This document shows positions 1 to 45,469 of a stretch of DNA of 64,000 bases, in pieces. Under the pieces are notes generated by a model, which saw only the letters and a program-made list of their open reading frames with translations, ran no database searches and was not told the DNA's origin. The stretch's first letter is position 1; every line of letters begins with the position of its first letter. The stretch comes from Myxococcota bacterium. GTDB taxonomy: Bacteria; Myxococcota_A; UBA9160; UBA4427. The DNA lies in NCBI GenBank assembly GCA_965250285.1, contig OZ252299.1, forward strand, positions 5,607,966-5,671,965. The letters are read 5' to 3'. The translations under genes and the position numbers were made by a program.

Positions 1-189
1 CGGGTCGACGACGACGAGCTGAGTGTCGATGGCGCGCGGCGCGGTGATCCATGGGCCGGGGCCGCCCACGAGAAAGGGCACCTCGGCCGAGAAGAACAGC
101 GCGTGCGCGAAGACGCCGATGAGCACCGCGCCGCTCGCGAGCAGCGCGATTCGAAGCCATCGGCCGAGCGCGGCTGCGTCGGAGCTCAC
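1..189 (-). CDS. membrane protein, N-terminal fragment (continues past left edge)
   Basis: My own reverse-strand translation from GTG 189-187 reads VSSDAAALGRWLRIALLASGAVLIGVFAHALFFSAEVPFLVGGPGPWITAPRAIDTQLVVVDP. It is open to base 1, has G/C-rich third positions and a hydrophobic helix. The GTG overlaps the TGA of the upstream GT2 gene (GTGA). It is absent from the ORF track because it is truncated. Confidence 0.4.
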   Translation of the reverse strand, partial: MSSDAAALGRWLRIALLASGAVLIGVFAHALFFSAEVPFLVGGPGPWITAPRAIDTQLVVVDP

Positions 190-968
190 GCGGCGCCGGG
201 GCCGCCGGTCTTCGCAGCGTCGCCGCGCAGGTAGCGCGACCGGATGCGCCCAATCTCGGCGATCGCCCGAACGAAGTCGGTCGCACGCACCTTCGATCCG
301 GCGACGTCGACCCACTGGCGAAGTGCGAGCTCGTAGACCACCCGCTCGGGCGCCGGGCCGCCGTCGCGCTGCCGAATGCAGATCAGCCGCGCGAGCACCT
401 CGACGTCGAAGACCCAGTTCGAGACGAAGGGCTCGGCGAAGAGCTCGCGGGTCAGCGGGCCGCTCCTGAAGAGCTTCGCACCGCACTGGGTGTCGTAGAC
501 CGGCAGCGCGAGCACGACCGAAGCGACCGTGGCGAAGACGCGACCGAGATAGTGCCGCACCGGGCTGCGCACGATGCGGCGACCGAGCAGCGCGACGCGA
601 GCGCCGTAGACGACCTGCCGCTCGGGATCGGTCTCGAGGCACTCGATGAAGCGCGGGATCTCTTCGAGGGGCGTCGCCAGGTCGGCGTCGAAGTAGCCGA
701 CGTAGGCCGCATTCGAGTCGAGCGCCCGCTGTAGACCCTGCCGGACGGCCTCGGCCTTGCCGACGTTGCGCGGCAAGTCGAGCACGTCGATCTGGTTCGA
801 GGCCTGATCGGCGGTCTTCTCGAGCACCCGGAGCGTGTCGTCCGCGCTGCCGTCGTTGACGAGCAGGAACCCCACTTCGGGGTGCGCCTTCGCGAACGCG
901 ACGATCTCGTCGCCTGGCAGGCGCCGGGCTTCGTTGAAGCACGGGATCACGACGATGGTGCGGGGCAT
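186..968 (-). CDS. glycosyltransferase family 2, polyprenol-phosphate hexosyltransferase-like (ALG5 / Dol-P-Glc synthase type)
   Basis: Within ORF 186..1136. The conserved core starts at MPRTIVVIPCFNE (ATG 968). Motifs VNDGSADDT, YFDADLATP (DxD) and DTQCGAKLF are present. The upstream 56 codons look non-coding. Confidence 0.8.
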   Translation of the reverse strand: MPRTIVVIPCFNEARRLPGDEIVAFAKAHPEVGFLLVNDGSADDTLRVLEKTADQASNQIDVLDLPRNVGKAEAVRQGLQRALDSNAAYVGYFDADLATPLEEIPRFIECLETDPERQVVYGARVALLGRRIVRSPVRHYLGRVFATVASVVLALPVYDTQCGAKLFRSGPLTRELFAEPFVSNWVFDVEVLARLICIRQRDGGPAPERVVYELALRQWVDVAGSKVRATDFVRAIAEIGRIRSRYLRGDAAKTGGPGAA

Positions 969-1221
969 GACGCGGGCGAGTCTACCATTCCGCGCTGCGC
1001 TCCGGACGTGCGCGTCATGTGGGATACCCTCCCGATCGTGCGAGGTCGGCTCGACGCGCCGCCCCGACCCGGCTGGGCTCGATCCGCCACGCCCCCTCAA
1101 AAAAGGAAAACGAAGAGGAGCGCGATTGACCGGCATCGCCGAAGGCCCCTCGGAAGGGATCGAGTCGAATGGGGGCGAATCCCGAGCTGCCGGCGCGCTG
1201 CCGACCAGCTGCGTCGTCGCG

Positions 1222-2820
1222 ATGGGCCTCTGCCTGGTGCTCTTCGTCGTGGCTCAGTACGGCCGGCTCGGTCAGCCGCTGCTGTGGCAGGACGAGGGCG
1301 AGACCGCGATGTTCGGCCGCCGCGTCCTCGAGTTCGGCTACCCGAAGGTGCACGGCGCCGAGGGGGTGGTCTACGGCATGAGCGTGCCGATGCGCTTCGC
1401 CGTCGACGCCGAGAGCGATGCGTACACCGGCAGTCTCTGGGGCCAGTACTACTTCGCGGCGTTCGCCGTCGGGCTCTCCGATCTCGCGACCGGTGCGTCG
1501 ACACGGACGGCGCTCGTTCGGTTGCCTTTCGCGCTCGCCGGAACGGCCGGGCTTGCGCTCGTCTGGCTCGCCTACGCGCCGGCGTTCGGGCCCCCTCGGC
1601 GTCGCTTCGGCTTCTTCTGTGCGTGGTGGGTCGGTCTCGCGTGCTCGGTCTCGTTGCTGCTTCACCTGCGCGAGGTGCGGTACTACGCGCTCGTCATGCT
1701 GCTCGTCGGTTTCGCGCTGTGGCTGCGTCAGCGCGCGCGGGGCTGGACGCGACGCGTCGGTCTCGCGCTCGCCTTTTTCGCGCTGTTCAACGTCTTCTAT
1801 CCGGCCGCCGTCGCGTTGGCGGTCTGGCTCGTCTTCGAGGGCGTGTGGCCGCTGCGGCACAGCGAGGCGCGCTCGCCGGGCGCGATTCGCGCGGCGGCGC
1901 TCGAGTGGGCGCCGCTGGTCGCGGCTGCGGTTGCGCTGGTCCCCGTCGTCCTCTGGTTTCGAGTGCTTCCACTCTCCGAGCTGATGTCGGCGCGCTACCA
2001 GTTCGGTCTGACCGATTACGCGACGAACGTCGCGGTGGTGGCGCGTCATCTGGCCGAGCACGAGTGGCTGGTGGCGGCTGGCTTGCTTCGCGTGGCCGCC
2101 TGGCAGCTCGCCCGGGGCGTCGAGGGGCCGGCGCTCGCCGCTTCGCTGTGGAGGCTCGTCGCGGTGTGGGTGGCGATCGGTGCGCGCAACCCGATCTTCT
2201 TCGAGCGCTACTTCGTCGCGCTCGGTCCGCTGCTCCTGATGGCGGCGCTGCTCGACTTCGACCGCGTTCTGCGCGACGCCGTCACACGCGGGCGGGGCAT
2301 GCGTTTCGCCGTCTCGATCGCGGCGGTCTGTGTCGTCGGTTCGCTGCTGCTCAAGGCGCCGGCGCTGGCAGGTCGCGTCACCGAGCTGATCACACCGGTG
2401 CGGGGCCCGCTCGATGTCGCCATCGAGTGGGTCGACGCGCGCGCGTCCGGCGCGGCACCGCCCGTCGTCGCGACGAACTACGAGGCGGAGGTGTGGATGT
2501 TCTATCTCGGGGCCCCCGTCGTCGGGCGGTTTCACGCCGACACCGAGGCGGCGGCGCGCGACGAAGCGGCCGTGCGCGCCGACTTCGTCGTGCCGCGCAA
2601 GGGATATCCGCACACGGTCGAGCGGCTTCGCGTCTACCTCGAGCCCGGTGCGTTCGAGCGTCACGTGCTCGAGATCGCCGATCTGCCCTACAACACGATC
2701 CCCGAGCTGAGCAGCGGTCGCGTCCTCGCGCGCACTCATCCGTTCCGCACCGTCTCGCCTGCCCATGAGGGCGAGGCGCTCGAGATCTGGCAGCGTCTGT
2801 CGTTGGAGACCTCGCCGTGA
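1222..2820 (+). CDS. polytopic membrane protein, GT-C-type glycosyltransferase candidate (ArnT/PMT-like)
   Basis: Within ORF 835..2820. The first ~129 codons are antisense to the GT2 gene. ATG 1222 (alternative TTG 1126) precedes TM1 MGLCLVLFVVAQ, followed by an acidic first loop LWQDEGETAMFGRRVLEFGYP. There are many hydrophobic segments and then a soluble C-terminal domain. Confidence 0.55.
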   Translation: MGLCLVLFVVAQYGRLGQPLLWQDEGETAMFGRRVLEFGYPKVHGAEGVVYGMSVPMRFAVDAESDAYTGSLWGQYYFAAFAVGLSDLATGASTRTALVRLPFALAGTAGLALVWLAYAPAFGPPRRRFGFFCAWWVGLACSVSLLLHLREVRYYALVMLLVGFALWLRQRARGWTRRVGLALAFFALFNVFYPAAVALAVWLVFEGVWPLRHSEARSPGAIRAAALEWAPLVAAAVALVPVVLWFRVLPLSELMSARYQFGLTDYATNVAVVARHLAEHEWLVAAGLLRVAAWQLARGVEGPALAASLWRLVAVWVAIGARNPIFFERYFVALGPLLLMAALLDFDRVLRDAVTRGRGMRFAVSIAAVCVVGSLLLKAPALAGRVTELITPVRGPLDVAIEWVDARASGAAPPVVATNYEAEVWMFYLGAPVVGRFHADTEAAARDEAAVRADFVVPRKGYPHTVERLRVYLEPGAFERHVLEIADLPYNTIPELSSGRVLARTHPFRTVSPAHEGEALEIWQRLSLETSP

Positions 2821-4292
2821 TGCGTGTCCTCGGGCTGCTCGTCGCCTCGTCGTTGGCGCTCGCCTGCGGCGGCGATTCCGCAACCACACGATCGGGAGAG
2901 CCCCGCCACCTGGTGCTGATCAGCGTCGACACGCTGGGCGCGCGTCACGTCGGCGCCTACGGTCACACCCGCGATACCTCTCCTGCGATCGATGCGCTCG
3001 CGGCCCGTGGCGTGCTGTTCGAGAACGCGTACACGCAGCAGGTCTGGACGCTCACCGCGCACATCACGATGATGACGAGCCTACATCCCCAGGCGCACGG
3101 CGCATCGGAGCGTCGCGCCGCCTGGCCGGGTATCCCGACGTTGGCCGGGACGCTCGCCGACGCCGGCTTCGACACCGCGGCGTTCACGGGCGTCGGTGCC
3201 TACATGAACCCACGCTTCGGGCTCGGTCGGGGCTTCGATACGTACGACATCGGTCGAAGTCACGACGAGCGCGACGACAGCGTGCGGCTCGACTGGCTGC
3301 GCGCGCAGGCCGCCGCCGCCGCCGCCGACCCGACGCACCGCTTCTTTCTCTTCGCGCACTACTTCGACGTGCACTCCGACGTCGGCACCGACGTCCCCTA
3401 TGTCGCGCCCGCCGAAGATGCCGAGCCCTATCTCGCCGAGGTGCTGGCCGAGGGCGAGACGTGGTCGCGCCGCGGCGACACCGATCTGCTGATCGAGCTC
3501 GAGAAGAGTGGCGAGGCGAGTGAGCGCGACCGCGCAGTGATCGGTGCGCTCTATGACGCCGGGGTCCGCTACACCGATCGAGAGGCGGTGGGTCGGCTGC
3601 TCCGGGCGATCGACGAGCTCGGGCTCGCCGAGTCGACGCTCGTCGTGCTCACCTCGGATCACGGCGAAGAGATCTTCGAGCACGGCATGGTGAGTCATCA
3701 GCAACCCTACGACGAAACCGCACGCGTGCCGCTCGTGTTCGCCGGGCCAGGCATCCCGCAGAACGAGCGTTTTGGCGAACTGGTCGAGCTGGTCGACGTG
3801 ATGCCGACCGTGCTGTCGTTGCTCGACGTGACGCCGCCGATGGGCATGCAGGGGCGCGATCTCTCGCCGCTGTGGAAGGGCGGGGCGATCGACGCGCGCG
3901 CGGCGCACGTCGACGGACTCTTCGGGGGGCTCCCGCACATGAAGTGGCGCTACCCGAGCGCGATCACGCGCGTCGTCGATGGCGTACGGTACAGCTACGT
4001 CGGCAAGGTGCACGAAGAGAAACGAGAGGACGGCTCGCGGCGTTTCTTCATGTACACCGAGGGTGAGCTCTACGACCTCGACGCCGATCCCGCCCAGAGC
4101 CACGACCTCGCGGGCGAACGTCCGCTGCTCGCCGAGCGCATGCGCAAGAGTCTGCTCGGCTGGTACGACGTCAACGAGCGCGTGGCGCGGCGACTCGAGG
4201 GGCGTGCGCGGGCGGCGGGGCAGGAGGCCCGGGTGCCGGCACCGACCGACGACGAGGCCGATCAGCTCCGAGCGCTCGGTTACACCGAGTAG
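2817..4292 (+). CDS. sulfatase-fold (alkaline-phosphatase superfamily) lipoprotein, Thr at nucleophile position
   Basis: GTG 2817 overlaps the upstream stop (GTGA; alternative ATG 2820). Lipobox LALAC. Motifs ISVDTLGARH and TSDHGEEIFEHG are present. WTLTAHITMMTS stands where true sulfatases have C/S-x-P-x-R. The protein ends in LRALGYTE. Confidence 0.8.
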   Translation: MMRVLGLLVASSLALACGGDSATTRSGEPRHLVLISVDTLGARHVGAYGHTRDTSPAIDALAARGVLFENAYTQQVWTLTAHITMMTSLHPQAHGASERRAAWPGIPTLAGTLADAGFDTAAFTGVGAYMNPRFGLGRGFDTYDIGRSHDERDDSVRLDWLRAQAAAAAADPTHRFFLFAHYFDVHSDVGTDVPYVAPAEDAEPYLAEVLAEGETWSRRGDTDLLIELEKSGEASERDRAVIGALYDAGVRYTDREAVGRLLRAIDELGLAESTLVVLTSDHGEEIFEHGMVSHQQPYDETARVPLVFAGPGIPQNERFGELVELVDVMPTVLSLLDVTPPMGMQGRDLSPLWKGGAIDARAAHVDGLFGGLPHMKWRYPSAITRVVDGVRYSYVGKVHEEKREDGSRRFFMYTEGELYDLDADPAQSHDLAGERPLLAERMRKSLLGWYDVNERVARRLEGRARAAGQEARVPAPTDDEADQLRALGYTE

Positions 4293-4329: not shown

Positions 4330-5328
4330 CTACGTCGCTTCGGCCCTGCGTCCAGCAAGAAACGAGGCGAGCCCCAGCCCCGCCCAGCCGAGATTCACCA
4401 GGCCGGTCAGCAGGCCGAGGGCCAGGGCGGCTTCGGCCGGCATCCCCAATCGCCCGAGCAACGCGACGAAGAGCAGCTCACGCACGCCGGTGCCGCCGAT
4501 CGAGATCGGCAGCATGCTGGCGAGCGTCACGAAGGGCACGACCACAGCGAACCAGGGCACGGCGACGTCGCCTTCGAGGGGGCGAGCGAGGGCCCAGACG
4601 GCCACGACGGGCAGCGCCTGGCACGCCAACGACAGCGCGATTGCGAGTGAGGTGCGTCGCGTGTCGTCGCGCACGGCCGCGAGCCCTTCACCCGCTTCGA
4701 GCGCGAGTGTGCGCACGCGACCGAACCGGCGAGGCAGCCGGTCGAAGACGGCGCGCGCGAACCGTGCGGCCCGGGGATGCAGCAGGCTGAAGGGGCCGAA
4801 GGTGCAGACCGCAGCGAGCGATACGCCTGCCGCGAAGAGACCGCGCGGGAGGGCGTCGCTCGGCGCCCAGGGCGCACCGCACAGCGCGACGAGCCCGAGG
4901 GCCTGCAAGCCGAGCACGCGCTCGAGCGTCACGACCCCGAGCACGGCAGGCCCCTTGCGCAGTCGGTCGTGGCCCTGCCAGACGCGCCAGGCGTCGCCGA
5001 GCACGCCCCCGGGCAGCACCGTGTTGAAGAACGTGGCCTCGAAGAAGAGCCGCAGGGCCGATCCGAATCGCGTGGGCACGTGGGCTGCGCGCATCAGCAG
5101 GTGAAAGCGCAGCGCGGCGAGCGTGAGCGTCGCGCCGAAGAGCGCGAAGCCGACGCCGATCCACATGAGCGTCTCGTCGCGGGGTGCATCGAACGCGTCG
5201 AACGTCGCCGCCCAGGCGATGCCGCCCGCCGCGTCGCGCGGCAGGGCGATGTGAAACGACCAAGCGAGCAGCGCGAGGGCCGGGATCCCGCGCAGCGCGA
5301 GCCGCAGCCAGGCGCGTTGGGCGCTCAC
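4330..5328 (-). CDS. UPF0104 / lysyl-PG-synthase-TM-domain family (flippase-like) membrane protein
   Basis: 332 aa, hydrophobic throughout. Family-typical C-terminal signature MLPISIGGTGVRELLFVALLG. Confidence 0.6.
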   Translation of the reverse strand: MSAQRAWLRLALRGIPALALLAWSFHIALPRDAAGGIAWAATFDAFDAPRDETLMWIGVGFALFGATLTLAALRFHLLMRAAHVPTRFGSALRLFFEATFFNTVLPGGVLGDAWRVWQGHDRLRKGPAVLGVVTLERVLGLQALGLVALCGAPWAPSDALPRGLFAAGVSLAAVCTFGPFSLLHPRAARFARAVFDRLPRRFGRVRTLALEAGEGLAAVRDDTRRTSLAIALSLACQALPVVAVWALARPLEGDVAVPWFAVVVPFVTLASMLPISIGGTGVRELLFVALLGRLGMPAEAALALGLLTGLVNLGWAGLGLASFLAGRRAEAT

Positions 5329-5372: not shown

Positions 5373-6191
5373 TCAGTCCTCTTTCCGGATGCGGTGGGGG
5401 TTGCGCGTCGTGAGGAAGGGAAAGAGTCGACCGAGCAAATTCAGCACGAAGGCGTCGACCTTCATGAAGGCGCGCAGCATCGGGCGTTCGGGGCGCCCTG
5501 CGAAGCTCGTGACGTGGCTGTAGTCGACGCCCCCCGGTGGCCGCGCCGTGAAGTAGTAGTTCGAGACGCAGAGCCGGGGCGCGTCGCCGGTGATCTCGGC
5601 GACGCCGTGCCAGCTCGTGGCATGCGTCTCCATGATCGCGAGACGGTTGAAGCGAGCGGGGAGGAGCGTCGCTTCGCGCACCCCTTCGTCCCAGAGCTCG
5701 AGCTCGCCGCCGTCTCTTTCGCCGAGATCGGGCGACGCGTAGTAGAGCACGTTGATCGCGCGATAGAGTCGGTTGTCGCCGTCGTGCGAGTTGTCGAGGT
5801 GCGGGTTCAGAAAGTCGCCGCGCAGCATGACCGAGAGCCCCGAGGCGTAGAGCGTCGGATCGGCTTCGAGCCCCTCGAGATCGGTGATCGCTTCGACGGC
5901 GCGCCGAACCGACTCGGCCTGGAACGCGTACGTCACGTCGTTGACGATCGGCTGGTAGGCCGCGACGTCGACGCCCACGCGCTTGCGCTCACGCCAGGTG
6001 TTGCGCAGCCGGAGCGTACTTGCGTCGGGAAAGGCCGCGGCGACGGCGCGGGCCGTATCCTCGGGGATCAGATCGTCGATCGTCACGCAGCGAAACGGGG
6101 TCGAGGCGGCCCAGGCTTCGCGCAGCCGGTCGCGATCGGCGACGAGGCGCGCGGCGATGTGTTCGGCGAGTTCGCTCCGCGACCAGCTCAC
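5373..6191 (-). CDS. 2OG-Fe(II) oxygenase, prolyl-hydroxylase-like
   Basis: HLDNSHD ... SWHGV gives an HxD...H iron triad. The N-terminus FRCVTIDDLIPEDTARAVAAAFPD resembles Tpa1/OGFOD-type hydroxylases (from memory). Confidence 0.65.
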   Translation of the reverse strand: MSWSRSELAEHIAARLVADRDRLREAWAASTPFRCVTIDDLIPEDTARAVAAAFPDASTLRLRNTWRERKRVGVDVAAYQPIVNDVTYAFQAESVRRAVEAITDLEGLEADPTLYASGLSVMLRGDFLNPHLDNSHDGDNRLYRAINVLYYASPDLGERDGGELELWDEGVREATLLPARFNRLAIMETHATSWHGVAEITGDAPRLCVSNYYFTARPPGGVDYSHVTSFAGRPERPMLRAFMKVDAFVLNLLGRLFPFLTTRNPHRIRKED

Positions 6192-6255: not shown

Positions 6256-7380
6256 TCAACGCAGCAGCAGATCCTGGGCCAGGCTCTTCATGCCGTACCC
6301 ATAGTGAGTGTAGTGGCCGCGCACGGCTTCGCGCAGGATCGGACCGAGTCGGGCGATGAAGCCCGCCGGCAGCGCGTCGCGCACGCGTGAGTGCTCGACC
6401 TTGGCTTCGATGTGGCGGCGCAGCGCGGGGTCGACCTCGAACTCGGGGTGGGCGTCGAGGCGTCGACCGGCCTCGCCGAAGAGCTGGGCGGCGTGGTCGA
6501 AGGCGCGTTCGCTGATCTGCCCCCTCGCCTTCTCGATCTGCGCGCGCAGATCGAGCAGCGCGAGGCCGAACTGGTTGTCGGCGTGCAGGCGGTACTCGAC
6601 GAGGTCTTCGTCGAGGATGTCGAAGCCCGAGACCGCGGCCACCATGAACGCGACCCATGCGTCGTGCACGCTGCGCAGACGCGGGAAGGGCAGGACGAGC
6701 GGCAGATAGCGACCGCGAAAGGCGAACGTGTTGCCCGCGGCGACGACGTGGCGCATGAAGACGCGTGCGGCCTCGCCGCGATGCACCATGCGCTGCTCGC
6801 CCGCGTGAAAGCCCTGGGCGCGCCAGAGGTCGTAGCCGAGGGGTCGGCGGTCGTCGTCGACGACGCCGCCGTTGCAGAAGAGACCTCCCGTCTCGGGATG
6901 CGCGTCGAAGTGCGCGACCATGCGCTCGATCTTCGTCGGCCTCCAGACGTCGTCCTGGTCGGCGAAGAACACGATGTCGCGGTCGCAGCGGCCGATGGCG
7001 CGCTCGAAGTTGACGGTGGTTCGCGCGCGCTCCGTATTGCGCACGAGCTGCACTTCGAAGGGGGCATCGGCGGCGAAGCGCTCGACGCGCTCGCAGGTGT
7101 CGTCGCCCGAGACGTCGTCGCTCACGATGAGCTGGTCGGGCGGGCGCGTCTGTCTCGCCAGGCTCTCGAGCTGCTCGTCGATGAAGCGTGCGCCCTCGAA
7201 CGTCGCCATCGCCACCGAGACGGACGTTCGGTCGGCGGGCGATTCGGGACGTGCGTCTCGCGCTTCGGCTGCGATCGTCCTGTCTCCGTGACGTCGACGA
7301 CGAGGCGTCGCATCGGGTTCGCTCGCGCGCCGCTCCCAGGCGTTCGCCGCGCAGTGCGTGCCACCGCGCCGGGCGAGCAT
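6256..7380 (-). CDS. glycosyltransferase family 2 (rhamnosyl/hexosyl-transferase type)
   Basis: VSVAMATFEGARFIDEQLESLARQT, LIVSDDVSGDDT, FFADQDDVW (DxD). The start is uncertain: ATG at 7380, 7416 or 7479. The N-terminal ~50 aa are low-complexity. Confidence 0.7.
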   Translation of the reverse strand: MLARRGGTHCAANAWERRASEPDATPRRRRHGDRTIAAEARDARPESPADRTSVSVAMATFEGARFIDEQLESLARQTRPPDQLIVSDDVSGDDTCERVERFAADAPFEVQLVRNTERARTTVNFERAIGRCDRDIVFFADQDDVWRPTKIERMVAHFDAHPETGGLFCNGGVVDDDRRPLGYDLWRAQGFHAGEQRMVHRGEAARVFMRHVVAAGNTFAFRGRYLPLVLPFPRLRSVHDAWVAFMVAAVSGFDILDEDLVEYRLHADNQFGLALLDLRAQIEKARGQISERAFDHAAQLFGEAGRRLDAHPEFEVDPALRRHIEAKVEHSRVRDALPAGFIARLGPILREAVRGHYTHYGYGMKSLAQDLLLR

Positions 7381-7450
7381 AGAAGAAGCGCGAACGTGCG
7401 AGCCATGCTTCGACATGGCCCGCCGCGCTGCCGCTCGGTACCCTGCCGCC

Positions 7451-10508: not shown

Positions 10509-10510
10509 CG

Positions 10511-37912: not shown

Positions 37913-37973
37913 CGCCCGTGCGCGCGTCACCGGGAGAAGCGTCGGCGCCGTCGCGCGCCGCGCCACGAGGATC

Positions 37974-38916: not shown

Positions 38917-40317
38917 CTACGGCGGCGCAGGCGCTTCGGGTTCGTGTCCCGGCGCGTCCTCGCGCGGGCCGCGCCATCCCCGCACCTCTTCGAGCACGGC
39001 CTTGGTCAGACGCGTGATCGCCAGCCCCATCAAGAACGCGACGCTCGCGCTGCGCAGCACGCGCACCCAGATCGGCCAGTGGGGCTTGGCGAGGAAGCGC
39101 CACGTGTCGAGCAGCAGCAGGTGCTCGGTCAGCCAGGCGTAGAGCCCCCAGATGTAGAGACTGCAGAGCAGCTGCGCCGCGATCGCCAGGGGCCATCCCG
39201 CGAAGAACCAGAGCGGCAGCGACCAGGCGAGATACTGGAAGGCAAAGAAGTTGGTGAACGCGAGCACGATCGCGTAGCCCTGGGCCACGGTCGCGGCGAT
39301 CGCGTCGGGCGATCGGTGTCGTCGCCGAAGCCACGCCCAGGCGATCACGAGCGCCGTGACGATCTGGCCGTCGGCGCGGTAGTAGCCGTTCGCGAGCGTC
39401 ACGAACGTGCGGCGGGCCGGCGCCGAGAGCGCGTGGAGCTCTGGATAGAAGACCTGGGGGCCCCAGATCAGGACGCCGCTCGTCGTCTGGATGCGCAGCC
39501 CCGAGTAGAGAAACACGGCCTCGATCGTCGCGCGCGGGTCGACGAGCAGCGCCGGGGCGAAGCCGACGAACGCCGTCGCGCCGAGGGCCGCCGCGAATCG
39601 AAAGCGCGCCTGCAGGTCGGGCAGGACGAGAAAGAGCGCCGGCGCGGCGAGCAGGCCCGGGATCTTGATCGAGGCGCCGAGGCCGAGCGCGACGCCGGCC
39701 CAGCCCGGCCGACCGTGGGCGACCGTGACGACCGCCCAGACCAGCGAACAGGCGACGACCGAGTCGGTATTGCCGTGGTGCGCCGAGAAGACGATCGCGA
39801 GGGGCGCGCACCAGTACAGCGCGCCGAGCAGATGCCGGTGCGCGCGAAACCAGGCGCGCTCACTGGTGGCCGCCAGCGCCACGACACCGAACGCGGTCGC
39901 GGCATCGACGAACACGAAGGGCAAGCGCAGCAGGAGGGGGAAGCTCGGACCGCCGGCCTCGGCGATGCGATGCAGGCCGGTGACCGCAAAGCCGGCGAGC
40001 GGCGGATGATTGAAGATGAATTCGCCGCCGCCGTAGTAGGTCACGAGCCCGAGTCGCTCGATCTCTCGGGCGTGGCCGGCCCACACATCGACGTCGACGG
40101 TGCCGGGGCTCCAGCCGACCAGCGCGGCGCGCAGGCCGAGGCCGATCGCGACGAGCACGCCGATCCCGATCTGCTCACGTGTGAGACCCATCACGTTCGC
40201 GGCGCTCGGCGTCGGCGGCTCCGTCGCGGCCTTCGGCTCGGTCGGCGCCTGGGGCTTGATCGGCGCCTGCGGCTCGGTCGGCGCCTGCGGCTTGGTCGGC
40301 GCCTGCGGCTTGGTCAA
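38917..40317 (-). CDS. polytopic membrane protein, GT-C-type candidate (DUF2029/GT87-like)
   Basis: Within ORF 38917..40557. Start is either TTG 40317 (GGAGA 9 nt upstream, which adds a Pro-rich repeat N-terminus) or ATG 40191. First loop DVDVWAGHAREIERLGLVTYYGGGEFIFNHPPLAG. Many TM segments. Confidence 0.5.
   Translation of the reverse strand: MTKPQAPTKPQAPTEPQAPIKPQAPTEPKAATEPPTPSAANVMGLTREQIGIGVLVAIGLGLRAALVGWSPGTVDVDVWAGHAREIERLGLVTYYGGGEFIFNHPPLAGFAVTGLHRIAEAGGPSFPLLLRLPFVFVDAATAFGVVALAATSERAWFRAHRHLLGALYWCAPLAIVFSAHHGNTDSVVACSLVWAVVTVAHGRPGWAGVALGLGASIKIPGLLAAPALFLVLPDLQARFRFAAALGATAFVGFAPALLVDPRATIEAVFLYSGLRIQTTSGVLIWGPQVFYPELHALSAPARRTFVTLANGYYRADGQIVTALVIAWAWLRRRHRSPDAIAATVAQGYAIVLAFTNFFAFQYLAWSLPLWFFAGWPLAIAAQLLCSLYIWGLYAWLTEHLLLLDTWRFLAKPHWPIWVRVLRSASVAFLMGLAITRLTKAVLEEVRGWRGPREDAPGHEPEAPAPP
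40207..40314. repeat. 18-bp tandem repeat x6
   Basis: Units CGGCGCCTGCGGCTTGGT (the last two identical; earlier copies diverge). On the minus strand they encode TKPQAP/TEPQAP-type hexapeptides. Confidence 0.85.
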
Positions 40318-40459
40318 AGAAAGACGTCTCCTGCCCGATGGGTTCGACTGGCATCTTCGCGCGACGTGGGGTTCCCTGCGCAGGGCGCATTCCCATGGCA
40401 CGCCCGAGGCTGGCCCACGCCCGGCGCCCGCCGCGTGCGATCGGAGCATAGAGAAGCCC

Positions 40460-42634
40460 GTGACGCCCAGGTCGACCGAGCAGACGAGCTTCTGGCTGGG
40501 ATGCGTGGGCGTCGCGCTCTTCTGGCTCGCGATCGGCTGGCCGGTCTTCGAGGGCACGGTCTACACCGACTCGGATCTCGGCAACTTCCACCTGCCGATG
40601 CGCTTCTTCTACGCCGAAGCGCTCGAGCGGGGCAGTGACTTTCACTGGTTTCCCTACGCATACAACGGTTTTCACCTCCACGGGGAGGGACAGGCGAGCC
40701 TCTATCACCCGCTCAACTGGCTGATCTACCGCTGGCTGCCGCTCGACGTCGCGTTCGTGCTCGACATCCTGCGAAACTACGTCTTTCTCGCCGTGGGCGC
40801 GTTCTTCTTTCTGCGCCGTGTCGAGGTGCGACGCGATGCCGCGGTGCTCGGAGCTGGTCTGCTCGCCTTCGGCAGCTTCTCGATGCTGCACTTCATGCAT
40901 CTGAACGTGATGGCCATCGTGGCGCACCTGCCGTGGGCGTTGCTCGCGATCGACATCGCCCTGCGATCGAAGCGCAGCGACCATGCGGCGTGGGCCACGG
41001 TCGCCGTCGCTGCGTTGACGGCGTCGCAGCTGCTCTTCGGTCATCCCCAGTTCGTGTGGATGTCTCTGGTCGCCGAGGCGGCCTACGCGCTCTTCGTGCT
41101 GCGGCGTGGCGCCGAGCGGCTGCGCTGGGCATGGCTGCTGGCCGCCACGCTGGTTGCGTTTCCGATGGCGGCGGTGCAGATGATCCCGCAGTGGGAGACG
41201 CTGGGGCTGTCCGAGCGAGCCCAGCCCCATGACTTCTTCGCGTATACCCTCTCGCTGCGACCCGAGAACCTCACGCAGCTCGTCTCGCCGCTCTTCTTTC
41301 GCGCGCGCGCCGTCGGCGGTGTCGAGGCGACCGAGTTCGCGGTCTACTCGGGCTCGCTCGTGCCCGTGCTGCTCGGCTGGATCGTCGTGCGTCGGCGCGC
41401 GTTCGGGCGCGCGGGGCCGCTGCTCTACGCCGCGCTCGGCTTCGCCGCGTTCGGCTTTCTGATGGCGCTCGGCGAGTACGGCCCGATCTACTGGATGCAG
41501 GCGAATCTGCCGGTCATCGAGGTGTTCCGAGGCCCGGCGCGCTATGTGCTGCTCGGGCAGCTCGGGCTCGCCGTCGCCTCTGCGATCGCCTTTGCCGATC
41601 TCGCCCGCTTCTGTGAACGCCGCGCGCGCGGCGAGACGGCGACAGAAGACGGCGATCTGCGCTGGCTGGCCCTGCCGCTCGGCCTGGCCCTGGTCGTGCT
41701 CGTGCTCGGCCTGGCGAACCCGTTCAGCGGGTCGGTTGCGCGGGCGGTGTCGACGCCCGGCCGACTCGCGATGGGCGTCGTCGGGATCGCGGTCTTCACC
41801 GGGCTCGTGTTTCTCGCCGCGCGAGGCGTGCGGTTCGTGCTGCCCGCGTTGATCGCGCTCGCGCTGCTCGATCTCGGTGTCTACGGCATGACGTGGATGC
41901 GCCGCGAGAAGCCGGTCGACCTCGAGCGATTCGTCGCCCGGCGACGTGTGCCCGAGTGGACCGACCGCTACCGCATGCACTGGGGGCCCCAGGCCCTCTC
42001 AATGCGTCACATCCGACTGGCGAACGGCTATGCCGCGATGGTGCCCGAGCGGCGTCTGCCGCTCGAGGTGGTCGACATCGGCGCGCGCGCGCCTTCGCCC
42101 GAGATGTGGGCGGCGCTGCGCATCGCAGGGGTGGGCTTCGCGTACGGACGCCTGATCGATGATCCGCTGCCGCGGGTGCGCCTCGTTTCGCGGGGCGTGC
42201 GCGCCGAGCGGCTGCTCGAGCAGCTTCGCTCGATCGACCCGCGACGCATGGCGATCGTCGACGGCGACTTCCTGCTCGGGGGCGGACCGCCCGGCGACGT
42301 GCTCGTGCTCGATGATCTGCCCGGCGAGCTGCGCGTCGAGACGAGCGCGCCGACGCGTCAGATCCTCGTCTTCGCCGAGTCGCATCATCCCGGCTGGGTC
42401 GCGCGTCTCGACGGCGAGCCCGCCGAGATCCTGCGCGTGTATGGCGACTTCATGGGGGTGGGCGTGCCGAAGGGCGTCCACGAGATCGAGCTGCGCTTCG
42501 AGCCGAGCAGCGTGCGCACCGGACGCCTCGTCTCGCTCGCTGGCTGCGCCGCGCTCGTGCCGATCTGGTTCGGAGTGCGACGAAGCGGTCGGGGCCGCGA
42601 TGCAGCGGCCCCTCGAGCGAGTGACTCCGACTAG
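40460..42634 (+). CDS. YfhO-like GT-C-type membrane protein
   Basis: Within ORF 40100..42634; GTG 40460 is the first start not overlapping the divergent gene. N-terminal TM then TDSDLGNFHLPMRFFYAEALERGSDFHWFPYAYNGFHLHGEGQ, which is YfhO-like from memory. ~12 TM segments and a C-terminal beta-rich domain. Confidence 0.5.
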   Translation: MTPRSTEQTSFWLGCVGVALFWLAIGWPVFEGTVYTDSDLGNFHLPMRFFYAEALERGSDFHWFPYAYNGFHLHGEGQASLYHPLNWLIYRWLPLDVAFVLDILRNYVFLAVGAFFFLRRVEVRRDAAVLGAGLLAFGSFSMLHFMHLNVMAIVAHLPWALLAIDIALRSKRSDHAAWATVAVAALTASQLLFGHPQFVWMSLVAEAAYALFVLRRGAERLRWAWLLAATLVAFPMAAVQMIPQWETLGLSERAQPHDFFAYTLSLRPENLTQLVSPLFFRARAVGGVEATEFAVYSGSLVPVLLGWIVVRRRAFGRAGPLLYAALGFAAFGFLMALGEYGPIYWMQANLPVIEVFRGPARYVLLGQLGLAVASAIAFADLARFCERRARGETATEDGDLRWLALPLGLALVVLVLGLANPFSGSVARAVSTPGRLAMGVVGIAVFTGLVFLAARGVRFVLPALIALALLDLGVYGMTWMRREKPVDLERFVARRRVPEWTDRYRMHWGPQALSMRHIRLANGYAAMVPERRLPLEVVDIGARAPSPEMWAALRIAGVGFAYGRLIDDPLPRVRLVSRGVRAERLLEQLRSIDPRRMAIVDGDFLLGGGPPGDVLVLDDLPGELRVETSAPTRQILVFAESHHPGWVARLDGEPAEILRVYGDFMGVGVPKGVHEIELRFEPSSVRTGRLVSLAGCAALVPIWFGVRRSGRGRDAAAPRASDSD

Positions 42635-43398
42635 TCCCGGTCGTGGGCGAACGTGCCGAGGCTGCCCATGAACGACGTCATCCAGCGGCGCGGGGTCACG
42701 CGCCCGAGCACCTCGAGCGCGCGATTGCCGAGGCCCGGGACGACGAGGGGGCCGCGCCGCTTTCGCATCGCGCGCAGCGAGGCGTCGACGACCTTCTCGG
42801 GCGGCATCGCGAAGAAATCGAGCAGGCCGAGAAACCGCTCGAGCCCGGCGCGCCCGAGAAACCCGGTGCGCGTGACGCCGGGGCAGAGGCCCTGCACGTA
42901 GACGCCGCGCCGCTTCGACTGGTACCAGAGCGACTCGCTGAACGACGCGAGGAAGCACTTCGTTGCGACATAGGTGGGTTGCACCGGCGTCGGCAGCCAG
43001 TTGGTGATCGACGAGAGATTGATCAGGGCATCCCCGGGTCGCGCCTGGGCCAGGTGGGCGTGGGCGAGCCGGATGGCCGCCGCACAGTTGACCGACAGGA
43101 TCGCGAGCTCGTCCTCGACGTCGGCGTCGGCGAAGTCGCCGAACAGGCTGTAGCCCGCGTTGTTCACGAGCAGTGCGACCGGCTCGGCGCCCAGGTGATC
43201 GGTGCACCGCGTGAGCCCGGCATCGGTGCCGAGGTCGGCGACGAGCGGCCTGTGGCCTTCACCCGCGAGCTCGGTCATCAGCTCGGCGAGGCGCAGCTCG
43301 TTGCGCGCGACCGCCGTGATCGCGTAGCCCTCGCGCGCGAGTCGCAGCGCAAACGCGCGTCCCAGGCCTTCGCTCGCGCCGGTCACCATGGCTCTCAC
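42631..43398 (-). CDS. short-chain dehydrogenase/reductase (SDR)
   Basis: Within ORF 42631..43596; GTG 43398 is preceded by GAGGAG. VTGASEGLG, NNAG, YVATK (YxxxK). Confidence 0.85.
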   Translation of the reverse strand: MRAMVTGASEGLGRAFALRLAREGYAITAVARNELRLAELMTELAGEGHRPLVADLGTDAGLTRCTDHLGAEPVALLVNNAGYSLFGDFADADVEDELAILSVNCAAAIRLAHAHLAQARPGDALINLSSITNWLPTPVQPTYVATKCFLASFSESLWYQSKRRGVYVQGLCPGVTRTGFLGRAGLERFLGLLDFFAMPPEKVVDASLRAMRKRRGPLVVPGLGNRALEVLGRVTPRRWMTSFMGSLGTFAHDRD

Positions 43399-43423
43399 GA
43401 TCGTTTCTCCTCGCCGGCTCGAA

Positions 43424-45469
43424 TCACCGCAGCCGCCACACTTCGTACACGCCAAAGCGCGCGATCGGCGCGTAGTGCGCGCGGAGATGCGCGTCGAGTC
43501 GGGGCAGGGCGCGTCGCACGCGTCGCCCCGCGTCGTCGTCGACGACGACCACCACCGTCTCGGGCTGGGCGCGCAGGGCGGGGATCCAGCCGCCATCCTC
43601 CAGACCCGCGAGCTCGCGCAGCGGCAGCATGTCGAGCACGGTGTTGTAGATCGCGTAGTCGTGCTCGGGGCGAAGCGGGGGTCGGCCGGTCACGTGGTGG
43701 AGCATCGCGTCGCCGCCGATCAGGAGCAGCGGTGCGGACGGAACCGCGGCGAGGGCGGCGACCAGCGCCTCGACGTCGCCCAGATGGCCGCGTTCGATAT
43801 CGGCTCGCTTCACGGTGAGCCCCTCGGTGCGTGGCAGGGCGAGCGCGCGCGCCGGCGCATCGCGCAGGCGCCACGTGCGCAGCGCCACGGGCCAGGCCAG
43901 CCAGATCGGGACGATGAGCAGGAGCACCGCCATGGCGCTGCGTTGCGCGGTCGACGCGCCAGGGGCAAAGCGGCGCCAGGGCTCGTAGAGCACGATGGCG
44001 AGGAGCGGCATCCACACGGGCTGCGCGAACCAGGCGTTGTGCGCCCCGCGCGGGAACACCTGGTAGCAGAGCAGCGCCGAGAAGAAGGCGATCGGCAGCA
44101 GGGCGCGCAGGCGCGCGCGTTCGGCCGGATCGGGCTCGCCGCGTGCGATGCGCGGACCGAAGACCGCGACCGCGCCGAGCACGATGCCGGTGTGTATCAC
44201 CCAGTCGAAGAGCGAGGCCGACCGCGTGAGCACCGCCGCGGTGTAGAGACGCGGGTTGGCGTGGGGCACGACGAGCACCGCGAGGGCCATGAGGAGGATG
44301 CCGAGGCCCGCCGTCGCCCGCGCCGCCCGGGGCGCGCGCCGGGCGCTGATGAGAAACGCCCCGGCGATCACGCCACTCGCGCCGATCGCGAACGTCGCGA
44401 TGCTGGCCCCCGGTGTCATCGCCGGGATCGCGTAGTTCCGCCGACGCAGGGGGCGCTCGAACATGCCGACGAGCAGGTCATCGAGATGCCCGCTCACGAG
44501 ATAGAAGAGCGCGACGAGCACGACGGGCACGAGGCCGCCGATCGCGAAGGGCAGCGCGCGGCTCTGCACGAAGGCGACGAGCGAGGGGCCGCTCGGCTGG
44601 CGGACGAGCGCGACGGCGACGCAGGCCATGAGGGCGTGGATCGGCGCGATGTGCACGAGATACTCGGCCACGCCCAGAAAGCGCGCGCCCGGCACGAAGA
44701 GCAGGGCTGCGGCGACTGCCCACGCGATCAGCCAGCCGGTGCGACTCGCGCCCGCGCCTTCGCGGGGGCGCGCCTCGAGGCCGGCGAGGGGCACCGCGGC
44801 GACCGCCAGCGACAGTCCGTAGGCGTTCATCACGCCGATGTTCTGCTTGAAGAACACCGCGAGCCCGGCCACGACCCCCGCCGCAACGAGCCCTCGGCGG
44901 CTCGGCGCGTCGCCTTCGCGCTGCAGCGCCCACGCGAGCAGCCCGGCGGCGGCGAGGCAGAGCGGGATCGTGAACAGCGCGGCGTGGGGCGCATTCACGT
45001 TCATGCTGGCGCGGCCCCAGTACACGATGCCGAGCAGGCCGACACCGAACGCGACGGGCAGCGGCACGAGCAGGCGCGCCACGCAGAAGCCGAGCACCAC
45101 GGCCAGCGCCTTCCACACGGCGATCGCCTGGCGCACGAAGAGGATCTCGCCGTCGCCCCCGCGTACGAGCGCGCCCAGCACGGCGATGGCGCCCGGACCG
45201 TAGTCTTCGACGAAGTCGCGGTGGGGCACCTCGCCCTGAGCCATGCGATGGCCCAGGCGCAGCAGGTAGCCCTCGTCGGTCATGTGGAAGGTGCGGTCGA
45301 GCGTCAGCCCGAACCAGAAGAGGGCGAGGCCGAAGAGCAGCAGCCCGCTGCCCGGCTCGAGAGGGCGCCGGATCGGGTGGATCGCCGACGTCGGCGGCGC
45401 ATCGGCGCCGACGCTCGAATCAGCTGCGGTCTCCACCTCGAGAGGACGAGGGCGCTCGTCCACCGTCAC
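43424..45469 (-). CDS. polytopic membrane protein, GT-C-type candidate (ArnT/PMT_2-like)
   Basis: TM1 then the loop DRTFHMTDEGYLLRLGHRMAQGEVPHRDF (DE motif). ~14 hydrophobic segments and a C-terminal soluble domain. The start is uncertain: ATG 45469 overlaps the helicase 3' end by 50 nt; alternative GTG 45436. Confidence 0.5.
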   Translation of the reverse strand: MTVDERPRPLEVETAADSSVGADAPPTSAIHPIRRPLEPGSGLLLFGLALFWFGLTLDRTFHMTDEGYLLRLGHRMAQGEVPHRDFVEDYGPGAIAVLGALVRGGDGEILFVRQAIAVWKALAVVLGFCVARLLVPLPVAFGVGLLGIVYWGRASMNVNAPHAALFTIPLCLAAAGLLAWALQREGDAPSRRGLVAAGVVAGLAVFFKQNIGVMNAYGLSLAVAAVPLAGLEARPREGAGASRTGWLIAWAVAAALLFVPGARFLGVAEYLVHIAPIHALMACVAVALVRQPSGPSLVAFVQSRALPFAIGGLVPVVLVALFYLVSGHLDDLLVGMFERPLRRRNYAIPAMTPGASIATFAIGASGVIAGAFLISARRAPRAARATAGLGILLMALAVLVVPHANPRLYTAAVLTRSASLFDWVIHTGIVLGAVAVFGPRIARGEPDPAERARLRALLPIAFFSALLCYQVFPRGAHNAWFAQPVWMPLLAIVLYEPWRRFAPGASTAQRSAMAVLLLIVPIWLAWPVALRTWRLRDAPARALALPRTEGLTVKRADIERGHLGDVEALVAALAAVPSAPLLLIGGDAMLHHVTGRPPLRPEHDYAIYNTVLDMLPLRELAGLEDGGWIPALRAQPETVVVVVDDDAGRRVRRALPRLDAHLRAHYAPIARFGVYEVWRLR

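Follow-up and report, generated by a model that had tools for sequence, protein, structure and literature searches.

Proteins bearing the C-terminal PEP-CTERM sorting signal have long been suspected of being glycosylated, by a machinery that has not been defined (PMC1569441; PMC12188702; PMC9850573). The question raised by the locus described here is whether part of such a machinery is encoded next to the proteins that it would modify. The locus lies in a 64,000-nucleotide stretch of the genome of a Myxococcota bacterium (assembly GCA_965250285.1, contig OZ252299.1, positions 5,607,966 to 5,671,965), hereafter the window, where two tandem PEP-CTERM genes are surrounded by genes for membrane enzymes of the GT-C type, GT2 glycosyltransferases, large TPR lipoproteins and sulfatase-fold proteins. 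An earlier, sequence-only reading had proposed a glycosylation system for PEP-CTERM cargo at this place and had described the modification as suspected and its machinery as undefined, a view with which the literature still agrees (PMC12188702; PMC9850573). The answer given here is tentative and held with a confidence somewhat below even: the locus is read as a lineage-specific system for envelope glycosylation, in two blocks, that solely or chiefly serves the PEP-CTERM proteins encoded within it. This reading draws mainly on the repeated occurrence of GT-C and PEP-CTERM superfamily genes side by side in related genomes, accompanied by an AglB-type enzyme whose acceptor-binding motif appears to have been replaced.

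Tandem PEP-CTERM genes and their GT-C neighbors

Open reading frames (ORFs) of the window were called by G+C content at third codon positions (GC3), and every called ORF was scanned with Pfam and NCBIfam models. At about 70% G+C raw ORF lists are noisy; the GC3-based call gave a clean tiling and reproduced the coordinates of the sequence-only reading almost gene for gene. Profile hidden Markov models (HMMs) likewise upheld its GT2, sulfatase-fold, sugar-enzyme and most of its GT-C assignments. Rfam and tRNA scans were empty. The candidate cargo, the polytopic proteins (TM1 denotes the first transmembrane segment) and the genes most closely associated with them are the following.

31499-32473 (+): PEP1, a Gly/Thr-rich, all-beta protein with a signal peptide and a canonical tail (PF07589 20.0 bits, just under the cut-off of 20.7)
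32768-33736 (+): PEP2, its tandem paralogue (PF07589 21.4 bits, cut-off 20.7; TIGR02595 20.7 bits, cut-off 16)
1222-2820 (+): polytopic protein with WQDEGE after TM1, candidate GT-C (motif and transmembrane profile)
13381-15663 (+): AglB-type STT3 GT-C with HPNLG replacing WWDYG (TIGR04154; family profile against Archaeoglobus fulgidus AglB, AfAglB)
15706-17364 (-): PMT_2-family GT-C with YYDE after TM1 (PF13231 31.9 bits, cut-off 26.1)
20432-22183 (+): GT-C-fold enzyme of TMTC-like architecture (FISDDxHYV motif, C-terminal TPR domain; AlphaFold2 (AF2) model and Foldseek)
38917-40317 (-): GT87-family GT-C (PF09594 40.8 bits, cut-off 25)
40460-42634 (+): YfhO-like polytopic GT-C (PF09586 30.5 bits, cut-off 28.5)
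43424-45469 (-): PMT_2-superfamily GT-C with TDEG after TM1 (assigned via its homologues)
25496-28018 (-): TPRa, a large TPR lipoprotein (TPR Pfam families; lipobox Cys; TIGR02917 122 bits against 312)
28027-30618 (-): TPRb, a large TPR lipoprotein with an uncertain start (lipobox; TIGR02917 223 bits against 312)
22285-25527 (-): MFS-like membrane domain fused to a spermidine-synthase-like domain (MFS/SpdSyn), 1080 amino acids (NF037959 126 bits, cut-off 40); absent from the earlier list of genes
33933-35420 (+): Sulf4, a Thr-type sulfatase-fold protein with an N-terminal membrane anchor (PF00884 155 bits; Thr nucleophile, LRALGY tail)

PEP1 and PEP2 start with a signal peptide and end in the tails ...FAPEPGTLLLLASGAAGLVLIGRRRINK and ...FVPEPGTLLLLASGGVGLVLLGRRRMNK, which consist of a PEP motif, a hydrophobic helix and a basic cluster; the two tandem PEP-CTERM proteins recognized earlier are therefore confirmed by canonical tails and, for PEP2, by scores over both cut-offs. 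They are 72–73% identical, and their mature forms contain 17% Gly, 15% Thr and 7–8% Ser as compared with 8.8, 4.8, and 4.7% in the other window proteins, a three-fold enrichment of Thr and a two-fold enrichment of Gly. PEP2 is modeled by AF2 as a compact all-beta structure (pLDDT 85) for which a fold search returned no credible PDB match (probability ≤0.28, TM-score ≤0.21). Several Asn, Thr and Gly residues are invariant in the PEP2 family, which comprises 150 homologues. Most of these homologues are on contigs of only 1–2 kb, suggesting that assemblies break there, perhaps at tandem paralogues such as PEP1/PEP2 or because of strain variation.

An 880-nt gene-free stretch (30619-31498) precedes PEP1. 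It contains a sigma-54-like sequence, TGGCAC-N5-GTGCA, at 30875-30890 (+), 624 nt before the PEP1 start, which is not significant alone; a pattern scan of the window gave 18 matches against 15.8 expected, not above chance. The sequence TGGCAT-N5-TTGCA, one mismatch away from TGGCAC-N5-TTGCA, occurs 116–223 nt before PEP genes in four loci of related genomes (L008, L035, L084, and L085; such loci are numbered in this way throughout). An upstream pattern of sigma-54 type matches the description of PEP-CTERM genes by Haft 2006 (PMC1569441).

All seven polytopic proteins show an acidic motif directly after TM1 (WQDEGE, VDGE..ADP, YYDE, FISDDD, VDVDVW, YTDSD, and MTDEG). Six of the seven GT-C proteins counted by the sequence-only reading have independent support from a profile, the fold or their homologues, whereas 1222-2820 is placed by its post-TM1 motif: neither Pfam, NCBIfam nor PDB profiles matched this family, and Pfam was also empty for its homologues. 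Although 20432-22183 itself has no Pfam match, its AF2 model (pLDDT 90.7, from an alignment of 52 homologues) yielded PDB matches to the membrane domain that are all GT-C enzymes (ArnT, AftA, AglB, STT3, Pmt4, and DPY19; Foldseek probability 0.99–1.0, TM-score 0.3–0.4), the remaining matches being TPR proteins; 19 of 28 homologues contain Pfam TPRs, and D62-D63 is invariant in the family. The protein at 43424-45469 has no direct profile match and is assigned through its 626 homologues, of which 31 of the 46 aligned match PF13231 (best E=4.4e-10). The YfhO match of 40460-42634 is confined to C-terminal residues 751–812 (~60 residues) and is accompanied by weak NCBIfam matches to PgfM1/PgfM2. 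PDB sequence-profile searches were empty for the PMT_2, 1222-2820 and 43424-45469 families, and two hhalign comparisons were uninformative (the 1222-2820 family with the PMT_2-like family, 5% probability; the TPR-bearing GT-C family with the PMT_2 family, 5.7%).

The locus had been presented as a single island at 186-45469. Its gene content is upheld, but it is split at 35627-38879 by Ddl, LarE (37016-37912) and a hypothetical gene, and therefore consists of two blocks, 186-35420 and 38917-45469. Membership of the Ddl/PP-loop genes in the system was considered and rejected, as NCBIfam identifies a true D-Ala-D-Ala ligase and LarE.

Recurrence of the association in related genomes

Related loci were collected from uncultured Myxococcota/Deltaproteobacteria metagenome-assembled genomes (MAGs) by a scan that took the TPR-bearing GT-C (20432-22183) as its anchor, followed by tblastn of all window proteins; the sugar enzymes and GT2 proteins named below are listed in the next section (MT, methyltransferase). 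The order GT2c-Gfo-DegT-AglB-like-PMT_2-MT-GT2d-(GalE)-GT-C/TPR-(MFS/SpdSyn)-TPRa-TPRb-PEP-Sulf4-Ddl-LarE is found in L005, L007, L008, L009, L010, and L040, and look-ups that started from PEP2 homologues recovered the same order, extended to GT87 and a DEAD helicase, in L086, L088, and L089. The part running from GT2d through (GalE), GT-C/TPR, (MFS/SpdSyn), TPRa, TPRb and PEP to Sulf4 is thus present in nine loci with 35–53% identity of the PEP proteins, and gene order is retained among relatives at 35–55% protein identity. TPRb is the closest neighbor of the PEP-CTERM genes, adjacent in at least 12 loci (L005, L007–L010, L024, L025, L035, L040, L086–L089), in almost every related locus the PEP gene is followed by Sulf4, and the MFS/SpdSyn fusion recurs between GT-C and TPR genes (L010, L011, L013, L015, L016, L018, L019, L025, L035, and L074). 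Orthologs of the PMT_2 enzyme (15706-17364) are present in most of the loci; the GT87 enzyme (38917-40317) has an ortholog in L086 at 45% identity.

The association is also seen in rearranged, paralogous modules:

L025: MFS/SpdSyn-TPRa-TPRb-PEP-Sulf4-GT-C-TPRb
L035: GT-C-TPRb-PEP-Sulf4-GTC1-MFS/SpdSyn (GTC1, homologue of 1222-2820)
L024: GT-C...AglB-like-TPRb-PEP
L026: Sulf-Sulf-GT-C-PEP
L022: PEP-GT-C-PMT_2
L074: MFS/SpdSyn-GT-C-PEP-GT-C-TPR

The PEP proteins encoded in these modules are distantly related to PEP1/2 (26–48% identity over 65–420 residues by BLASTP), and an HMM of the PEP1/2 body failed to detect their genes. GTC1 adjoins the PEP/Sulf4 module in L029 as well as in L035. Elsewhere, PEP paralogues in L084 and L085 are divergent from a GT87-methyltransferase-GT4 operon, and L087 contains a Sulf-PEP-TPR-Sulf group 5 kb from the queried gene. 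The density of PEP-CTERM-like ORFs is 2.4 per 100 kb for the Myxococcota loci scanned and 1.2 per 100 kb for distant loci.

The synteny proposed as a check by the sequence-only reading has therefore been found, GT-C, TPR and PEP-CTERM genes co-occurring repeatedly, and the link between enzymes and cargo, described there as co-location only, is stronger by at least nine syntenic loci, the rearranged modules and the PEP-anchored look-ups, every one of which led to GT-C or TPR/sulfatase-fold genes, although the role of the PEP-CTERM proteins as acceptors is still inferred. It might be argued that there is no functional link at all and that the genes are neighbors only by gene order inherited in one lineage, since Ddl, LarE and the DEAD helicase are kept in the same order and all relatives belong to one Myxococcota MAG group. 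However, the genes remain associated where they have been rearranged, duplicated or moved into other genomic contexts, for which plain collinearity is no sufficient explanation, and this alternative is judged very unlikely.

Some features of the related loci lie outside this pattern. In three relatives an AlgX-like and an MBOAT gene, located between the hypothetical gene and GT87 (L086 16318-18961, L088 15890-18524, L089 16202-18830), replace the YfhO-like/SDR/PMT_2-like block found at 40460-45469 of the window, a pair that suggests O-acetylation of a glycan; L024 contains a UbiA prenyltransferase and a GDSL esterase. A 222-amino-acid ORF of L025 (14583-15251, -) ends in ...PSTGCGLLGPEGLLVLGAVALRRRERARPA, a MYXO-CTERM-like tail with a Cys, which agrees with an origin of the MAGs from Myxococcota. 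Five loci of Acidobacteriaceae MAGs (L045, L049, L061, L072, and L080) encode a PEP-CTERM protein of about 220 amino acids, 45–72% identical among loci, whose gene is 6.7–7.6 kb from a distant homologue of 20432-22183; this co-location could be due to synteny within the lineage, or else TPR-bearing GT-Cs and PEP-CTERM proteins may be linked more widely.

An AglB-type enzyme without WWDYG and the associated pathway genes

The sole NCBIfam match of 13381-15663 is TIGR04154, the archaeosortase-A-associated STT3 (197 bits, under the cut-off of 450), and its Pfam matches are STT3, AglB_core-like and AglB_L1. A profile of 50 homologues matches AfAglB with E=7e-53 over residues 12–591 and 642–738 (transmembrane and C-terminal domains), human STT3A with E=6.5e-5 and Campylobacter PglB only with E=0.075, the family being homologous to GT66 across its 13-TM core and C-terminal globular domain. 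The catalytic acidic residues are kept: all 117 homologues have D52, D167-H168-H169, and E352, as well as R422, without variation, and in the alignment D52 corresponds to D47 of AfAglB, the Asp of external loop 1 (EL1), DHH to NDHH, the D-x-H motif of EL2, and E352 (TGE) to the Glu of TIAE, the TIXE/SVSE motif of EL5. The WWDYG motif of GT66, in contrast, is missing. The sequence Y-G-V-I-A-H-A-N-L-G-H stands opposite Y-G-V-I-S-W-W-D-Y-G-H, and the slot is H(A/P)NLG throughout the 117 homologues and HPNLG in the window protein. In the N-X-S/T sequon the +2 Ser/Thr is bound by WWDYG, which acts as a clamp; in the absence of this motif the enzyme cannot recognize N-X-S/T in the usual way and its acceptor rule must differ. 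Judged from its conserved residues, this clade has an intact catalytic core and has lost the sequon clamp. Gene order is maintained around AglB-like homologues with 64, 49, and 43% identity.

The enzymes that may supply the GT-C proteins with sugars, together with the remaining sulfatase-fold proteins, are as follows.

186-968 (-): GT2a, weakly ArnC/PpgS/PgfS-like (PF00535 60.7 bits; best NCBIfam matches PgaC, ArnC, PpgS, and PgfS, all far under cut-off); 55% identical to an ortholog in L002
6256-7380 (-): GT2b, EpsE/TuaG-like (PF00535 67.7 bits; NCBIfam EpsE/TuaG weak)
10511-11233 (+): GT2c, putative polyprenol-phosphate sugar synthase type, AglJ-like (PF00535; AglJ TIGR04182 87.5 bits)
18004-19173 (-): GT2d, putative polyprenol-phosphate sugar synthase type with C-terminal transmembrane helices (PF00535 90.5 bits; AglJ 111.5 bits)
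4330-5328 (-): UPF0104/LPG_synthase_TM flippase-like membrane protein (PF03706 116.9 bits; TIGR00374 41.7 bits, cut-off 43.2)
5373-6191 (-): 2-oxoglutarate (2OG)-Fe(II) oxygenase, prolyl-hydroxylase-like (PF13640 51.9 bits); beside the UPF0104 gene also in L001
11243-12283 (+): Gfo/Idh/MocA oxidoreductase, UDP-GlcNAc 3-dehydrogenase-like (PF01408; NF040723 160 bits, cut-off 450)
12284-13384 (+): DegT/DnrJ/EryC1 sugar aminotransferase (PF01041 378.5 bits; PseC/ArnB-type matches below cut-off)
17361-17969 (-): SAM-dependent methyltransferase (PF13489 54.7 bits)
19350-20414 (+): UDP-glucose 4-epimerase GalE (TIGR01179 405.5 bits, cut-off 262.3)
42631-43389 (-): short-chain dehydrogenase/reductase, SDR (PF00106 103.5 bits)
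2817-4292 (+): Sulf1, Thr-type sulfatase-fold lipoprotein (PF00884 126.8 bits; Thr nucleophile, lipobox Cys, C-terminal LRALGY tail)
7358-8926 (+): Sulf2, Thr-type sulfatase-fold lipoprotein with an uncertain start (PF00884 171.9 bits; LEALGY tail; lipobox in the long reading)
9021-10508 (+): Sulf3, Thr-type sulfatase-fold lipoprotein (PF00884 140 bits; Thr nucleophile, LRALGY motif, lipobox)

Pfam and NCBIfam agree with the earlier assignment of the UPF0104 protein (PF03706), GalE, the Gfo/Idh/MocA and DegT enzymes, the SDR, the methyltransferase and the 2OG oxygenase, and all four GT2 enzymes match PF00535. The claim that three of these GT2s are of the polyprenol-phosphate sugar synthase type is best backed for GT2c and GT2d, whose best matches are AglJ, the haloarchaeal dolichol phosphate (Dol-P) hexose transferase and mycobacterial PpgS (87–111 bits vs. 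a cut-off of 325), but GT2a is only weakly similar to ArnC/PpgS. Relatives of GT2c, which also matches the Dol-P hexose transferase and PpgS models, are 73–90% identical, and GT2d orthologs carry PF26629 (GT2_TM_C). Since the best NCBIfam match of the Gfo/Idh/MocA protein is the archaeal UDP-GlcNAc 3-dehydrogenase (NF040723), the neighbors of the AglB-type gene appear archaeal-flavored by their best matches, all of which are below equivalog cut-offs. In the euryarchaeal Agl pathway glycans are carried on polyprenol (dolichol) monophosphate; the archaeal-flavored partners and the lack of a phosphoglycosyltransferase in the window fit a carrier of this kind. In accordance with the sequence-only reading, no match to Wzx/Wzy/Wzc/Wza, ABC exporter, initiating phosphoglycosyltransferase or exosortase families was found in any called window ORF, so that no marker of a classical Wzx/Wzy- or ABC-dependent polysaccharide locus is present.

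With respect to the putative 3-amino sugar, a hexapeptide-repeat acetyltransferase gene is located between DegT and the AglB-like gene in L002 (9389-9964), where L005, L006, and L009 show only a gap of about 650 nt, of matching size. The window, L001, L010, and L011 have no intervening acetyltransferase, so that in this genome the 3-amino sugar may remain without an acetyl group.

Type I sulfatases contain a C/S-x-P-x-R motif in which the Cys or Ser becomes formylglycine. None of the four sulfatase-fold proteins has it; the position reads T-x-P/x-x-H/M, with Thr in place of Cys/Ser and His or Met in place of Arg, and each of the 20 related ORFs whose motif could be found agrees with this. The four Thr-type enzymes recognized earlier are thus corroborated by PF00884 and by the Thr at the nucleophile position. 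The lipobox Cys of three of them and of both TPR proteins, and the membrane anchor of Sulf4, indicate that these proteins act in the periplasm. The four sulfatase-fold proteins also share, at the C-terminus or close to it, the motif L(R/E)ALGY(V/T/L)(E/D/I) (4232-4292, 8866-8926, 10400-10508, and 35300-35420), which is found as well in 34 of 40 related sulfatase-fold ORFs of the Myxococcota loci and in Phosphodiest-family proteins near the PEP paralogues of L084 and L085. This tail may be a recognition signal for the neighboring TPR proteins.

Two further regions of the window are apparently unrelated to the system: 57188-60601 (+) encodes in a row a circularly permuted ATP-grasp protein, an Alpha-E domain protein and a transglutaminase-like protein, and 51770-54061 (+), downstream of gatCAB, encodes a single protein with DUF4388, a DnaJ domain and TPRs.

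Candidate acceptors, rival explanations and known systems

If the locus is a glycosylation system for its PEP-CTERM proteins, its steps could be outlined as follows. In the cytoplasm GalE, the UDP-GlcNAc 3-dehydrogenase-like oxidoreductase and DegT would make nucleotide sugars including a 3-amino sugar, as judged from family membership. At the inner membrane face the AglJ/Dol-P-hexose-transferase-like GT2s would load polyprenol monophosphate, a step for which no phosphoglycosyltransferase would be needed, as in euryarchaeal N-glycosylation, and the lipid-linked sugars would be flipped, possibly by the UPF0104 protein. On the periplasmic face the AglB-type enzyme and five or six other GT-Cs (two PMT_2-type, the TPR-bearing TMTC-like, the GT87 and the YfhO-like enzymes) would transfer the sugars, most likely to the Gly/Thr-rich all-beta PEP-CTERM proteins, as their repeated co-location suggests. 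Binding or presentation of these proteins would fall to the two TPR lipoproteins and to the TPR domain of 20432-22183; TPRs as substrate adaptors were already proposed for PrsT by Haft et al., by analogy with OGT (PMC1569441). The periplasmic Thr-type sulfatase-fold lipoproteins might, speculatively, add or remove phosphoryl-type substituents, and an exosortase encoded elsewhere would cleave off the PEP-CTERM anchor. The enzymatic logic proposed in the sequence-only reading (GT2 loading, flipping and periplasmic GT-C transfer without Wzx/Wzy/ABC functions) is supported in that it fits the family assignments.

A number of observations weigh against this outline. The description of the TPR proteins as PrsT-like is apt insofar as they are large lipobox proteins (~800–860 amino acids) beside PEP-CTERM genes, but both miss the PrsT cut-off of TIGR02917 (223 and 122 bits vs. 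312), and TPR proteins cross-match many models. Bacterial O-glycosylation usually occurs on disordered Ser/Thr-rich linkers, whereas PEP1/2 are predicted to be compact all-beta proteins. Canonical N-X-S/T glycosylation of PEP1/2 was rejected, given that they contain only 2–4 sequons, that the PEP2 family has no strongly conserved one and that the AglB-type enzyme lacks WWDYG. No exosortase was found in any called window ORF or among ten unassigned ORFs of the related loci. As to gene context, the forward collection of syntenic loci started from the GT-C gene, which introduces an ascertainment bias; the equal synteny of Ddl, LarE and the DEAD helicase means that part of the conservation is plain inheritance; L008 has kept the PEP gene and is missing the AglB-like gene; and in L011 the slot after TPRb is occupied by another membrane/TPR protein with no PEP gene, the PEP homologue of that MAG being the L084 copy beside GT87. 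Finally, the window encodes a third PEP-CTERM protein away from the locus:

62823-63617 (+): third PEP-CTERM protein (PF07589 19.9 bits; weak matches to EDSAP-1 and floc PepA tails), adjoining ThiS, a BNR-repeat protein and YhbY, with a body unrelated to PEP1/2

The last points bear on a broader explanation, namely general periplasmic protein glycosylation with many targets, of which the PEP-CTERM proteins would be abundant neighbors or one substrate class. Enzymes of PMT, YfhO and oligosaccharyltransferase type modify many proteins elsewhere (PMC5856776; bioRxiv 10.1101/2024.05.05.592596), and both the loss of the AglB-type gene in L008 and the PEP-CTERM genes away from the locus are in keeping with such a system; yet PEP-superfamily genes stand repeatedly right beside GT-C, TPR and sulfatase-fold genes, which argues for a dedicated relation and makes the broader explanation rather improbable.

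The number of GT-C enzymes points in a different direction, as a set of seven would be expected of a glycolipid or polysaccharide assembly line more than of protein glycosylation. On the periplasmic face the enzymes could build or decorate a non-protein envelope glycoconjugate, either a lipoglycan or polysaccharide made from polyprenol-phosphate sugars, in the manner of the mycobacterial glycans described below, or side branches of lipopolysaccharide (LPS) or exopolysaccharide (EPS) added by three-component GT2/flippase/GT-C systems; the PEP-CTERM proteins would bind this glycan or be anchored in it without being substrates. Many different GT-Cs accompanied by several GT2s of the polyprenol-phosphate sugar synthase type would suit this function, as would GT87, a lipoglycan mannosyltransferase family, an AglB-like enzyme without the peptide-sequon motif, the AlgX and MBOAT genes of relatives (a polysaccharide O-acetylation pair) and the UbiA and GDSL esterase genes of L024; moreover, PEP-CTERM proteins tie EPS to cells in flocs (PMC9850573) and three-component glycosylation systems are widespread (PMC11127046). 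Nevertheless, neither the window nor the related loci contain a polymerase, exporter, primer phosphoglycosyltransferase or lipid-A/core gene, the TPR domain fused to a GT-C and the large TPR lipoproteins point to protein partners, and it is the PEP-CTERM genes that recur most tightly beside the GT-C genes. A glycoconjugate of this kind, the main rival, is considered unlikely, though with a substantial chance of being the correct explanation.

Eukaryotic glycosylphosphatidylinositol (GPI) anchoring employs GT-C mannosyltransferases fed by Dol-P-Man, phosphoethanolamine transferases and a transamidase. By analogy, the locus might build an amine-bearing periplasmic glycolipid or glycan anchor, to the amine of which the exosortase would attach the cleaved C-terminus of its cargo. 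The amine may be that of the Gfo/DegT 3-amino sugar or of a phospho-substituent from the Thr-type enzymes of the alkaline phosphatase superfamily, and the AglB-type enzyme without WWDYG may have been recruited to a non-sequon acceptor. This possibility is based on the 3-amino-sugar genes, the phosphotransferase-like enzymes and the precedent of type IX secretion (T9SS), in which cargo is linked to A-LPS via an amino sugar of the Wbp pathway (PMC7468200). It is assigned a small chance; if true, it would supply the long-missing acceptor molecule of exosortase.

The system proposed for PEP-CTERM proteins resembles several known ones, each in part, its nearest precedents in function being the S. 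mutans Pgf system, actinobacterial PMT and euryarchaeal AglB with archaeosortase cargo. It shares with euryarchaeal N-glycosylation an AglB-type STT3 (AfAglB being the best PDB match), AglJ-like GT2s, a UDP-GlcNAc 3-dehydrogenase-like enzyme and the lack of a phosphoglycosyltransferase, and with the archaeosortase A/PGF-CTERM S-layer glycoproteins a cargo with a C-terminal sorting signal of exo/archaeosortase type. It differs in its bacterial host, in having H(A/P)NLG for WWDYG family-wide, in missing all equivalog cut-offs, and in the presence of six more GT-Cs, TPR lipoproteins and Thr-type sulfatase-fold enzymes. In the Pgf system of S. mutans the GT2 PgfS, the epimerase PgfE and the YfhO-type PgfM1/PgfM2 glycosylate LPXTG-sorted, Thr-rich adhesins (PMC5856776); the combination of a GT2, a GalE-type epimerase and a YfhO-like GT-C with Thr-rich candidate surface substrates bearing a C-terminal sorting signal is similar here, whereas the Gram-negative host, the exosortase-type signal, the far larger number of enzymes and the predicted folded beta substrates are not, and the weak PgfS and PgfM1/M2 matches are marginal (18–34 bits). 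Actinobacterial and eukaryotic protein O-mannosylation (Ppm1/DPM1 with PMT; TMTC1-4, whose TPR domains are luminal) likewise combines PMT_2 GT-Cs, polyprenol-phosphate sugar synthases, putative in the present case, and a TPR-tailed GT-C; in this locus there is no MIR domain, and none of the Pfam GT-C models matches the enzyme with the TPR domain.

Among systems with other products, the three-component systems (ArnC/ArnEF/ArnT, GtrA/GtrB/Gtr*, pentofuranose; PMC11127046) also combine a GT2, a putative flippase and a GT-C and, in the case of Arn, an aminotransferase beside the GT2, but the present locus has UPF0104 instead of a GtrA/ArnEF-type flippase, no LPS/O-antigen genes and many GT-Cs rather than one. 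Mycobacterial lipomannan (LM), lipoarabinomannan (LAM) and arabinogalactan synthesis (PimE, other GT87, Emb, and Aft) also involves several periplasm-facing GT-Cs including GT87, which polyprenol-phosphate sugars supply, and PpgS-like GT2s; phosphatidylinositol, arabinan and galactan pathway genes are lacking here, the host is Gram-negative and there is the association with PEP-CTERM proteins. The XrtA/PEP-CTERM/PrsT system (Haft 2006; PMC1569441) has in common with the locus PEP-CTERM proteins, large TPR lipoproteins similar in size to PrsT, a long intergenic region before the PEP gene and sigma-54-type sites upstream of some orthologues; the window is unlike it in that genes for an exosortase, PrsK/PrsR and EPS export are absent, in TPR proteins that score below the PrsT cut-off, and in GT-C neighbors instead of cytoplasmic GT4/GT2 EPS enzymes.

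The individual parts (AglB/STT3, PMT_2, GT87, YfhO, AglJ/DPM1-type GT2s and PEP-CTERM proteins) are of kinds already known. What appears to be new, on the basis of gene content and alignments, is the repeated genetic coupling of GT-Cs to the PEP-CTERM superfamily, a set of four that keeps recurring (the TPR lipoprotein, the Thr-type sulfatase-fold enzyme, the TPR-bearing GT-C and the MFS/SpdSyn fusion), and a predicted bacterial AglB-type STT3 clade without WWDYG; no paper linking PEP-CTERM with GT-C enzymes, or describing such a clade, was found in the literature. The clade represents a natural experiment on the acceptor specificity of oligosaccharyltransferases and a possible source of enzymes for glyco-engineering. 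Among Gram-negative bacteria of the environment PEP-CTERM/exosortase systems are common, and the fate of their cargo after cleavage, as well as its glycosylation, has been an open matter for twenty years (PMC1569441; PMC12188702). The locus and its recurring modules provide a concrete set of genes genetically tied to one PEP-CTERM superfamily (the TPR-bearing GT-C, TPR lipoproteins, Thr-type sulfatase-fold enzyme, MFS/SpdSyn fusion and AglB-type transferase), and its GT-C enzymes are the best candidates so far for the long-suspected glycosylation of PEP-CTERM proteins.

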